From Escherichia phage vB_EcoM-ZQ1, in the sequence record MW650886.1: a stretch of 64,000 nt of DNA; one strand, written 5' to 3'. Shown here piece by piece: positions 11,189-15,091 of the stretch. The first letter of the stretch is position 1. Every line of letters starts with the position of its first letter. The position numbers and the translations under genes are program-made. The notes beneath the pieces are model-generated. The model made no database searches, was not told the origin of the DNA, and saw nothing but the letters and a program-made list of their open reading frames with translations.

Positions 11189-11599
11189 ATGAAATTACTG
11201 GGATATTTTCGTGAACTCCCAACGGGAACTGAAGGCAAGTTGTTCTCACAGGTGAAGGGGGATGACATTGGTGATACGATGATTCCCCTGTACACTCGTG
11301 AACTTCCTGTCGAAGGTGCCTGGGAGCGCCGTGTGGTCGCTGCCGCCAACAAATATGGTGATGTAATCGTCGTTGCTGACCGTCACCACAGCCGATTCAT
11401 GAACAGCCAGCTCAAGATCCTGAAAGAAGCAGGCGTCATTAAATCCACCCATACCCGCGAACAGGGCTTCATCGACAACCAGGGCAACTTCCTCACTCGT
11501 GAAGAGGCGTGCATCGTAGCCCGTGAAGCTGGACAGATCAATCAGGTGCGCCTGAAGACAACCCCTTTCCGCGAACTCTTTTCCGAAGACCTCTATTGA
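11189..11599 (+). CDS. hypothetical protein
   Basis: 136-aa ORF. Confidence 0.45.
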   Translation: MKLLGYFRELPTGTEGKLFSQVKGDDIGDTMIPLYTRELPVEGAWERRVVAAANKYGDVIVVADRHHSRFMNSQLKILKEAGVIKSTHTREQGFIDNQGNFLTREEACIVAREAGQINQVRLKTTPFRELFSEDLY

Positions 11600-11605
11600 A
11601 GAAAA

Positions 11606-11625
11606 AGGCGGTATTATTACCGCCT
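11606..11625 (+). promoter_or_regulatory. stem-loop (aggcggta-TTAT-taccgcct) after the stop at 11599; possible terminator or RNA-stability element
   Basis: 8-bp stem read directly; downstream tract only partly T-rich. Confidence 0.4.
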
Positions 11626-11649
11626 CGACCCCTTGTTTGGTAACATCAA

Positions 11650-11892
11650 ATGAGCCCAGAATTTGAAAATCTGTTCGAGCGATGCTTCGAACCAGGTTCT
11701 GTGTCCGGTTACATGGACCGCCTTTGCACTGCCATTGTAATACGCCTTGCTGCCAAGGGTATCGTTGTCAACACCATTATCAACAATGGGAACAACTTTA
11801 TCATGCAGATGACTGATTATCACCACCGCACAGGCATCATCCAGGTGTCATGTGTTGACAACAGCATTATTGAATGGAGACAGTACGCATGA
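11650..11892 (+). CDS. hypothetical protein
   Basis: 80-aa ORF. Confidence 0.35.
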   Translation: MSPEFENLFERCFEPGSVSGYMDRLCTAIVIRLAAKGIVVNTIINNGNNFIMQMTDYHHRTGIIQVSCVDNSIIEWRQYA

Positions 11893-12488
11893 CAACTTAT
11901 GTAATCAATGGTGGTGATCTACTGAAAGCCGCCTGTAGCTTCAATCTGATCGACATCTTTGCCCACGGTGCCAACTGTTGGTCTACCATGGGCGCGGGCA
12001 TTGCTCTGCACATCGGTAACAACTTCCCAGCCCTGCGTGAAGTCGATGCGAACGACCCTCGTGGTCCAGAGCAACGCCTGGGTGGCATGTCCTATGCATT
12101 TGACCACAGCACTGGTGTCTGGGGCGCGAACCTCTACACTCAGTTTTATCCAGGTCCGAACGCTCGCATGCCGTCTGTCATCAGTTCTGTTCAGATGTTG
12201 TTTGAGCAGGTTCACGAAATTGTGGAAGCAACTAAAGACGAAACCGTCTATGTCGGCCTGCCTGCTATCGGTTGTGGTATTGGTGGTCTGAACCTCTACA
12301 GTGTAGTGCGCCATATCAATCGAATCTCTGAAAGCGTGTATGAAGAGACCCGCCGTCGTGTCGTCCCAGTCTTCTATATCAGGGAAGGAGACGGATTCGA
12401 TGATGATCTGATGGAACTTTCTCATCTGGACACAGAAGGTATCATGATTGTCGAAGATGAGCAAGAAATCATCGACGAGGAGGCGTAA
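11889..12488 (+). CDS. macro-domain protein (ADP-ribose binding/hydrolase family)
   Basis: ATGA overlap at 11889; motifs DIFAHGANCWSTMGAGIALHI (N-A-A-N ... G-G-G-V-like) and GLPAIGCGIGGL match the macro-domain signature. Confidence 0.65.
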   Translation: MTTYVINGGDLLKAACSFNLIDIFAHGANCWSTMGAGIALHIGNNFPALREVDANDPRGPEQRLGGMSYAFDHSTGVWGANLYTQFYPGPNARMPSVISSVQMLFEQVHEIVEATKDETVYVGLPAIGCGIGGLNLYSVVRHINRISESVYEETRRRVVPVFYIREGDGFDDDLMELSHLDTEGIMIVEDEQEIIDEEA

Positions 12489-13121
12489 ATGTACAAGTCT
12501 AATTTCCTTGCAGTTGCCGACAGCGAAACCCTGGGGCGCTGGGATGATGCAGTCATGCTGTCTTGGGCACACACCATCGCCGACCTGACCAAGCGTTATA
12601 CTCTTCAGCAGCTGGTTGAGGAGCGCACGACGTTCATTAAGCTGAATGTCAAAGAGCAGATCGAACTCGGTCGCGTGAAGGACCAGGGGACGGTAGAATG
12701 GTGGTTGGGGACGGGTAAACGTAACCCGTGTGATGCGGCTCGCGCCGTCAGTCTGTACCCCAAGGAAGATGACATCTCTATCTTCCAGCTGGCCGATGAA
12801 ATCCGCAAGGGTTGTCATCGTCTTGGGGTAGACCCGCGCTCGGTTGACTGGTGTGATCGCAACCTGTTTGATCTGCGCAAGGCTCAGCACATCATTGAGG
12901 TGACATGTAAGCAGGACTCCAACGAGCCTTGGGATTACCACCACACCTTCGACATCGTGAGCTGGCTGAAGGGTGTTGGGCAGCAGGATCGGTATGCTGG
13001 CATCAAGGCATGGGAACTGGAAGGTATGGTCTATCATGACCCTCGTTATGACGCTGCGCTTGACTGGCTGCGTATTCAGAAGACCATGGAAGATCTGATG
13101 GGTCTGGAGGTTGTGGGATGA
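12489..13121 (+). CDS. DEDDh-type 3'-5' exonuclease (DnaQ-like; T4 DexA-like candidate)
   Basis: N-terminal AVADSET (D-x-E Exo I motif) and C-terminal YHDPRYDAALD (H-x4-D Exo III motif). Confidence 0.6.
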   Translation: MYKSNFLAVADSETLGRWDDAVMLSWAHTIADLTKRYTLQQLVEERTTFIKLNVKEQIELGRVKDQGTVEWWLGTGKRNPCDAARAVSLYPKEDDISIFQLADEIRKGCHRLGVDPRSVDWCDRNLFDLRKAQHIIEVTCKQDSNEPWDYHHTFDIVSWLKGVGQQDRYAGIKAWELEGMVYHDPRYDAALDWLRIQKTMEDLMGLEVVG

Positions 13122-13420
13122 TTGTATTCACTGTCATCGGTGTGATCGTAACAGCTGGGGTGTTCACAGCCATATTGGGCTACCTGTACTTCATGTTCCT
13201 TCATCCGTTATTTCAGGCGTTCAGTCTCACGAATTGGTACTTGGCCTGCCTAAAGGCCGACGGCGGCGTGAACATGGCCTCTCTTCCTTACTGGCGGCTG
13301 GTAGCGCATTACTACTCGGTCGGTGGCTGGCCTGGGGAAAGGACATGGAACTCTATCGGTGAGTGGTATGGAATAGGTCGATGGCGTATATTCCCTGATG
13401 AAGACGATCAAGCCCCGTGA
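13118..13420 (+). CDS. small membrane protein
   Basis: ATGA overlap; N-terminal hydrophobic helix IVFTVIGVIVTAGVFTAILGYLYF. Confidence 0.4.
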   Translation: MIVFTVIGVIVTAGVFTAILGYLYFMFLHPLFQAFSLTNWYLACLKADGGVNMASLPYWRLVAHYYSVGGWPGERTWNSIGEWYGIGRWRIFPDEDDQAP

Positions 13421-13430
13421 GGGGCTTTTC
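13411..13430 (+). terminator. rho-independent terminator (agcccc-GTGA-ggggct then TTTC), GNRA-type loop
   Basis: hairpin overlaps the stop codon at 13418-13420; argues against the 13398 start of the next ORF. Confidence 0.55.
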
Positions 13431-13484
13431 TATATCCTGGATAGAGTATCATTGGTTCACCAACGAATCCTCGGGAGAGGTGAT

Positions 13485-13826
13485 ATGAAACGTTCGGTTG
13501 TTGTAAATGACATCACGAGATTGATAAACCTTGTCAAAGATGTGTTTCCACAACAGGTGGATGTCGAGTACGTGGGGAAGAACGGGAAGTGCTATCAGGT
13601 TGCTCTACTTCTGAAGCACGTGTATCCCCAAGCAGAGATACATTACAGTCAGACCGAAGGTCATGTGTATACTCTGATTGATGGGCATTACTACGACATC
13701 GACGGCATCCACTTCAGTGTCCCACCGGATACGTGTTTGCTCGAACACAACAGAGGCCATAAACCCCATCGCTGGCATAAAGGGTTTGTGAACGTACCGA
13801 TTTTAGAATGGTTGAGGAGACCATAA
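13485..13826 (+). CDS. hypothetical protein
   Basis: ATG at 13485 preceded by GGAGAGG and downstream of the terminator; the ORF-track start at 13398 lies inside the terminator. Confidence 0.4.
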
Positions 13827-14386
13827 TGGCAGGAATTGTGAAGTATCTGGGAGACACCCACCTTGGGCACAAGAAGATCTTCAAGCCCCGTGGGTTCGAT
13901 ACCCAAGAGGCGCATGATGCTGCAGTTATCGACAGTATCTTTCAGGGGCTGAAGTCTCGAGACGTCCTTGAACTTGCAGGCGACATCTGCTTCATCGGGG
14001 CTGAGGGGTTCATTCGCCTGATGCGCGAGGGTGCCAAGCGGAATATTGATGAGTTCAAGCGCCGCCCGGTTCCCGATGACTGGCGACCGAACTTTATCAT
14101 CAGGGTGGCGCAAGGCAACCATGACAGATTCAAGATGTTGATGCAGCTGTATCAAGAGGGATGGATTAGCTCCTTTGGTGCGATGTATGAGCGTGATACC
14201 CCGGTTGGTTGTGTGCTGACCACTCACGTTCCTTATCAATTAGGCCGCTGGGCTTATAATATCCATGGTCATCTTCACAGTAAAATGCGTGAAGAACGTG
14301 AATACCTGAACTGCAGCTGGGAACAATTCAAGCGCCCTGTGACATTGGCCGAGCTGCTCTACACCAATCTGGGGATTGAAATATGA
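13826..14386 (+). CDS. calcineurin-like metallophosphoesterase
   Basis: TAATG overlap start at 13826; motifs YLGDTHLGH (GDxHG), AGDICFIG (GDxx), QGNHD (GNHD/E), HGHLH. Confidence 0.65.
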
Positions 14387-15035: not shown

Positions 15036-15060
15036 ATAAAGATTCAGCGGTTATTGAAGA

Positions 15061-15091
15061 AGGGGGAGTATATACTTCCCCTTAGTTTATT
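15061..15091 (+). terminator. rho-independent terminator (9-bp stem, ATAT loop, then TAGTTTATT)
   Basis: hairpin read directly about 25 nt after the stop at 15035. Confidence 0.55.

Follow-up and report, generated by a model that had tools for sequence, protein, structure and literature searches.

The DNA analysed here, hereafter the window, is a stretch of 64,000 nucleotides from Escherichia phage vB_EcoM-ZQ1 (MW650886.1), about 97% identical to the Escherichia phages A221 and LHE287 and belonging to the Vi1-like Ackermannviridae. Within its T4-like early/middle region lies an accessory gene encoding a metallophosphoesterase (MPP), which forms part of a tightly packed unit of four genes (YunG-like, MPP, DUF7618 and PHROG 4677). 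The features of the locus, all on the plus strand, are as follows:

13410..13427, plus strand: GC-rich hairpin with a T-rich stretch behind it, 5' of the YunG-like gene; the corresponding site in phage Mutine has an annotated terminator.
13814..13819, plus strand: Shine-Dalgarno GAGGAG, 6 nt 5' of the ATG at 13826, as read from the sequence; phage Mutine has an annotated ribosome binding site at this position too.
13826..14386, plus strand: MPP gene, 186 aa, stop codon included.
13850..13870, plus strand: motif I, GDTHLGH, with D10 and H12 as metal ligands and a nearly invariant H15.
13979..13993, plus strand: motif II, GDICF, with D53 as bridging metal ligand and without the PPP-type DRG extension.
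13994..14095, plus strand: insert separating motifs II and III, basic and helical, about 34 residues long (57-90; pI about 10), clade-specific and missing from most family members.
14114..14125, plus strand: motif III, GNHD, with N98 as metal ligand and H99 as catalytic residue.
14222..14233, plus strand: motif IV, THVP, with H134 as metal ligand and an invariant P136.
14267..14278, plus strand: motif V, GHLH, with H149 and H151.
15060..15083, plus strand: hairpin 3' of the last of the four genes; phage Mutine again has an annotated terminator at the corresponding site.

The open reading frame as listed extends from 13808 to 14386 on the plus strand (192 aa). The ATG at 13826, already chosen in the initial annotation, is the better start, given the Shine-Dalgarno sequence, the overlap of this ATG with an upstream stop codon (TAATG), and the fact that homologues and GenBank annotations of the protein begin with MAGIVK. 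At its other end, the stop codon TGA (14384-14386) overlaps the ATG of the next gene. The two hairpins probably mark the 5' and 3' boundaries of the four-gene unit. A promoter scan was uninformative (6 sites as against 7.7 expected by chance), with a 10/12 match that is intragenic (14233-14260).

The initial annotation described the product as a compact, calcineurin-like metallophosphoesterase with a complete motif set, and this description is borne out. All five motifs of the superfamily (DxH / GD / GNH[DE] / H / GHxH) are present, at positions G9-D-T-H-L-G-H15, G52-D53-ICF, G97-N-H-D100, T-H134-V-P and G148-H-L-H151, and the protein has the four-layer alpha/beta-sandwich fold of these enzymes. 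Conservation was assessed in an alignment of 69 homologues (A1), in every one of which D10, H12, G52, D53, G97, N98, H99, H134, P136, H149 and H151 are invariant. The motifs GDxx, GNHD and GHxH stand as originally given, but the first one does not: motif I has the form DxHxG(H) and is not strictly GDxHG. On the basis of superfamily chemistry, D10, H12, D53, N98, H134, H149 and H151 would serve as ligands of two divalent metals (Mn2+, Ni2+ or Fe/Zn), a metal-activated bridging water would attack the phosphoester, and H99 of the GNHD motif would stabilise the transition state or the leaving group. Residues 1-186 constitute the MPP core only, with nothing beyond it in the structure model, where the insert between motifs II and III carries helices at 58-73 and 75-78. 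This insert is visible in A1, and most of the distant matches split into two stretches on either side of it (approximately residues 5-60 and 93-178); it could have altered the specificity.

Searches with the single protein were of little use, since Pfam yielded no match to PF00149 or PF12850 at E <= 1, only a spurious Peptidase_S37, while the PDB sequence search returned noise only; alignment-based searches were therefore needed. Among the 69 homologues of A1, PF00149 (Metallophos) is matched by 46 and PF12850 by 39. The protein matches PHROG 547 ("phosphoesterase") with E = 8.6e-43 and has 399 representative homologues at E <= 1e-3. The family profile matches PDB entry 1XM7 (Aq_1665 of Aquifex aeolicus) with E = 1.2e-27, and the structural neighbours in BFVD are phage "phosphoesterase / COG4186" proteins. 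Moreover, the subfamily-specific residues H15, R22-x-F24, R141, N145, Y160 and P171, at least 90% conserved in A1, are all present. The protein is thus shown to be a binuclear metallophosphoesterase that consists of the catalytic core alone and belongs to the Aq_1665 / PHROG 547 clade, which we take to correspond to COG4186 / CDD cd07390, the annotation carried by homologues in the family.

Within this clade the Ackermannviridae proteins are divergent, with 21-35% identity to typical PHROG 547 members, no match to the Pfam models and an insert of their own. Identity to Aq_1665, a structural-genomics protein, is only about 21%, and the two differ in architecture: the additional residues of Aq_1665 fall between motifs IV and V, while the phage protein has instead its basic helical insert between motifs II and III. 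The longer homologues (P0011, P0017, P0023, P0047 and others) carry no further recognisable Pfam domain. PHROG 547, of which the phage protein is a direct member, is an accessory and variably present family found in more than 2100 phage records (about 4% of phage records have a member), including phage K, T5-like, rV5-like, crAss-like and jumbo phages. The gene itself, 90-97% identical, is annotated in about 200 Ackermannviridae records. That it is an already annotated gene, in hundreds of phage records, and a member of a defined and widespread subfamily had escaped the initial annotation. Public labels for the family are inconsistent ("phosphoesterase", "metallophosphatase", "Ser/Thr (protein) phosphatase" or "hypothetical protein"). 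A functional study was not found in the literature on 1XM7, aq_1665, COG4186, cd07390 or PHROG 547, and the literature on the Ackermannviridae phosphoesterase consisted of genome announcements only. The name AQ1575 denotes the YebC/TACO1 protein and is misleading for this clade.

The gene is real and under selection. Comparison with relatives gives dN/dS values of 0.04-0.14, the lowest of them with phage Mutine (dS 1.1), synteny is maintained in Kuttervirus and in Klebsiella phage Madison, and the unannotated Miltonvirus KNP4 contains a homologue 41% identical. It is also beneficial but dispensable to the phage. In Dickeya phage RC-2014 (Limestonevirus) a clean deletion of 2.96 kb, corresponding to positions 11353-14311 of the window, has left a 75-nt remnant of the 3' end of the MPP gene and has removed the genes for a macro-domain protein and DexA together with it. 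Likewise, the homologue in phage K (ORF190, cd07390) is missing in close relatives (PMC6022877).

As for the surroundings of the gene in this phage, the macro-domain protein is encoded by a 204-aa open reading frame (11874-12488) whose homologues carry PF01661. It was correctly described at the outset as lying near the MPP gene, but it is not adjacent: it ends 1.3 kb 5' of it, with three genes between. The gp46/SbcC-like gene occupies the stretch from about 62152 to the end of the window, 48 kb away, in agreement with the initial annotation, which had noted that the two are not adjacent. Neither in the window nor in the whole LHE287 genome were T4-type RNA ligase (Rnl1), AAA_33 kinase, cREC or RtcB detected by tblastn and hmmsearch.

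The neighbourhoods of distant family members bear on the substrate. In rV5-like phages a cassette is found that comprises cREC, an Arn.3-like gene, MPP, a T4-type Rnl1 and then a 134-aa AAA_33 kinase without a phosphatase domain, the rV5 MPP being a full-length family member (hhalign E = 4e-21). Calcineurin-like genes have been described in V5-type RNA-repair neighbourhoods by Iyer et al. (PMC9503650). A survey of IMG/VR neighbourhoods, for which a 12-sequence alignment served as query and which covered 49 lineages, located Rnl1 (PF09511, 3e-35) within 8 kb of the family gene in 4 of them, one of which also has a 167-aa AAA_33 kinase 221 nt upstream; Rnl1 occurs in 3.3% of phage records overall, a plain comparison figure and not a formal baseline. 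RtcB is near the family gene in lineage L043 and in phage Kabachok. The association with RNA ligase concerns only about 10% of the sampled lineages, and in Ruegeria phage V10, which has both Rnl1 and the kinase, the 8 kb examined contain no MPP. The dominant neighbourhoods are those of replication and repair, not anti-defence islands: DnaB, PolA and FEN genes are adjacent or near in about 6 lineages, the family gene adjoins a primase in a crAss-like phage, and in Acinetobacter phage Apostate it stands between gp47 and gp46. These widely varying contexts mean that the substrate may differ between clades.

Since genes for replication, recombination and RNA repair surround the distant members, several of which stand beside Rnl1 and a stand-alone 5'-kinase lacking a phosphatase domain, we favour an action on nucleic-acid ends or on nucleotides. 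The protein would be an accessory phosphoesterase that acts, judging from gene neighbourhoods, on nucleic-acid termini or nucleotides and not on phosphoproteins, and whose single most likely activity would be that of a phosphodiesterase-monoesterase clearing the ends of broken RNA or DNA of 2',3'-cyclic or 3'-phosphates; we hold this reading, end healing included, to have an even chance of being right. The adjacency to Rnl1 and a phosphatase-less kinase is the strongest contextual case for it. The proposed role is that of the Pnkp phosphatase domain. Of the possibilities put forward in the initial annotation, a phosphodiesterase is plausible. Lambda phosphatase and the phosphatase domain of Pnkp from Clostridium thermocellum, which have the binuclear MPP active site in common with the phage protein, are documented to act as phosphodiesterase and monoesterase on 2',3'>p ends (PMC2190708). 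The likeness of context to Pnkp is, however, limited to the distant members, in which the family gene is linked to a 5'-kinase and an RNA ligase; that linkage is missing in this phage. As the Ackermannviridae lineage examined lacks Rnl1, AAA_33 kinase, cREC and RtcB, the argument from a missing healing enzyme does not apply here.

Among the alternatives, a broader one places the phage enzymes of the Aq_1665 type in counter-defence, where they might degrade nucleotide- or ADPR-derived immune signals or else heal the ends that host nucleases of the anticodon or ribotoxin type leave with a 2',3'-cyclic phosphate; in the Ackermannviridae, without a phage ligase, they might do so in concert with the macro-domain and Arn.3-like genes that are deleted along with theirs. 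We consider this improbable, if less so than the alternatives that follow. Its narrower form, a phosphodiesterase destroying nucleotide immune signals (the cyclic mono-, di- or oligonucleotides of Pycsar, CBASS and type III CRISPR, or the ADPR-derived signals of Thoeris), maybe alongside the macro-domain protein and NAD+ salvage genes, seems unlikely. Such a role would suit a small, accessory, early-region protein with a complete phosphodiesterase-type active site, some MPPs do hydrolyse cyclic nucleotides and ADP-ribose (Rv0805/CpdA, ADPRibase-Mn), and the joint loss with the macro gene in Limestonevirus points the same way, as does the presence of NamPRT and Prs in the close relative LHE287. 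The macro gene is nevertheless at a distance, and the family keeps mainly the company of replication and repair genes; a Tad2-like gene (PF11195) adjoins distant homologues in 3 of the 49 lineages, the only such hint. PADLOC models gave no match to the protein at E <= 0.01, and the literature searched reports no family member as an anti-defence enzyme. Furthermore, the known signal-degrading phage enzymes have other folds, Apyc1 being a metallo-beta-lactamase and Acb1 a 2H phosphodiesterase.

It is also doubtful, to much the same degree, that the protein serves the nucleotide pool as a nucleotidase, pyrophosphatase or 2',3'-cNMP phosphodiesterase, be it in salvage or in the hydroxymethyl-dU-based precursor switch of Vi1-like phages. 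A dCMP deaminase gene about 1 kb downstream of MPP, DexA upstream, and genes for dUTPase and a thymidylate-synthase-like protein elsewhere in the window region speak for it, and homologues have a dATP/dGTP pyrophosphohydrolase nearby in Cellulophaga phage phi14:2 and a dGTP_diPhyd_N gene in a JGI contig. This adjacency to nucleotide-metabolism genes is not conserved across lineages, however, and the family is found equally in phages with unmodified DNA (T5-like, Kayvirus), while Limestonevirus, which belongs to the same modified-DNA family, lacks the gene; its loss there counts against such a role.

A metal-dependent DNA nuclease, nicking or degrading host DNA or processing ends in recombination in the manner of Pseudomonas putida MPE/PdeM, Mre11 or Gp48 of mycobacteriophage A10ZJ24, is hardly a stronger candidate, and we rate it as unlikely as a nucleotide-pool enzyme. 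The DxHxG form of motif I is common to Mre11, SbcD and PdeM, DexA is encoded in the same block, and the position of the Apostate homologue between gp47 and gp46 would fit, yet the protein has neither a capping nor a DNA-binding domain and the phage already possesses an SbcCD-like pair besides DexA. Three more specific identities were considered and rejected. T4 gp47, Mre11 and SbcD share the superfamily and the type of motif I, but proteins of this type exceed 300 aa; the phage MPP is half the size and, as the initial annotation rightly judged, too small for such a nuclease; it also lacks their C-terminal capping domain and is remote from gp46, which in the near-identical LHE287 is adjoined, just past the window end, by a separate 371-aa SbcD-like gene (GDLHIG..GD..GNHD). 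P. putida MPE/PdeM (TIGR04123) is a ligase-associated ssDNA endonuclease; the NCBIfam PdeM model gives a weak match (E = 9e-4) that scores 18.6 bits against a curated cutoff of 150, and no Lhr, LigC or Exo operon occurs among the annotated neighbours of MPP. Finally, A10ZJ24 Gp48 and the Cluster A mycobacteriophage MPE with which it is aligned, Bxb1 gp47 (also the Bxb1 RDF), are likewise phage-encoded early MPPs, and Gp48 offers an anti-defence precedent through DNA degradation (PMC12287305). These are proteins of 255 aa from another clade, and a family-level relationship was discarded, as the hhalign comparison of A1 with Bxb1 gp47 was non-significant (probability 0.6%, 19 columns around GNHD only).

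A protein phosphatase of the lambda-PP type, specific for Ser/Thr (or Tyr), is very improbable, although many relatives in GenBank bear that label ("putative serine/threonine protein phosphatase") and a protein phosphatase was one of the two identities favoured in the initial annotation: of the PPP signature GDxHG / GDxVDRG / GNHE, the defining motif II is missing together with its phosphate-binding Arg, motif III reads GNHD, the family profile matches lambda PP, which is no more similar than any other MPP clade, with only E = 0.02 and in the motif II-III region alone, and in T5-like phages a family member coexists with another, larger protein labelled "serine/threonine phosphatase", encoded two genes from it.

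As a sequence feature the gene is ordinary, but the family is among the commoner uncharacterised accessory enzymes of phages. The protein-phosphatase label that it carries is not justified, and the comparative contexts point to nucleic-acid ends or nucleotides rather than phosphoproteins. Were the counter-defence reading true, a function would be assigned to an uncharacterised family that more than 2000 phage genomes encode. If the favoured activity on nucleic-acid ends were confirmed, thousands of annotations would be corrected, and a healing enzyme of the MPP type would be added to phage RNA/DNA repair or counter-defence.

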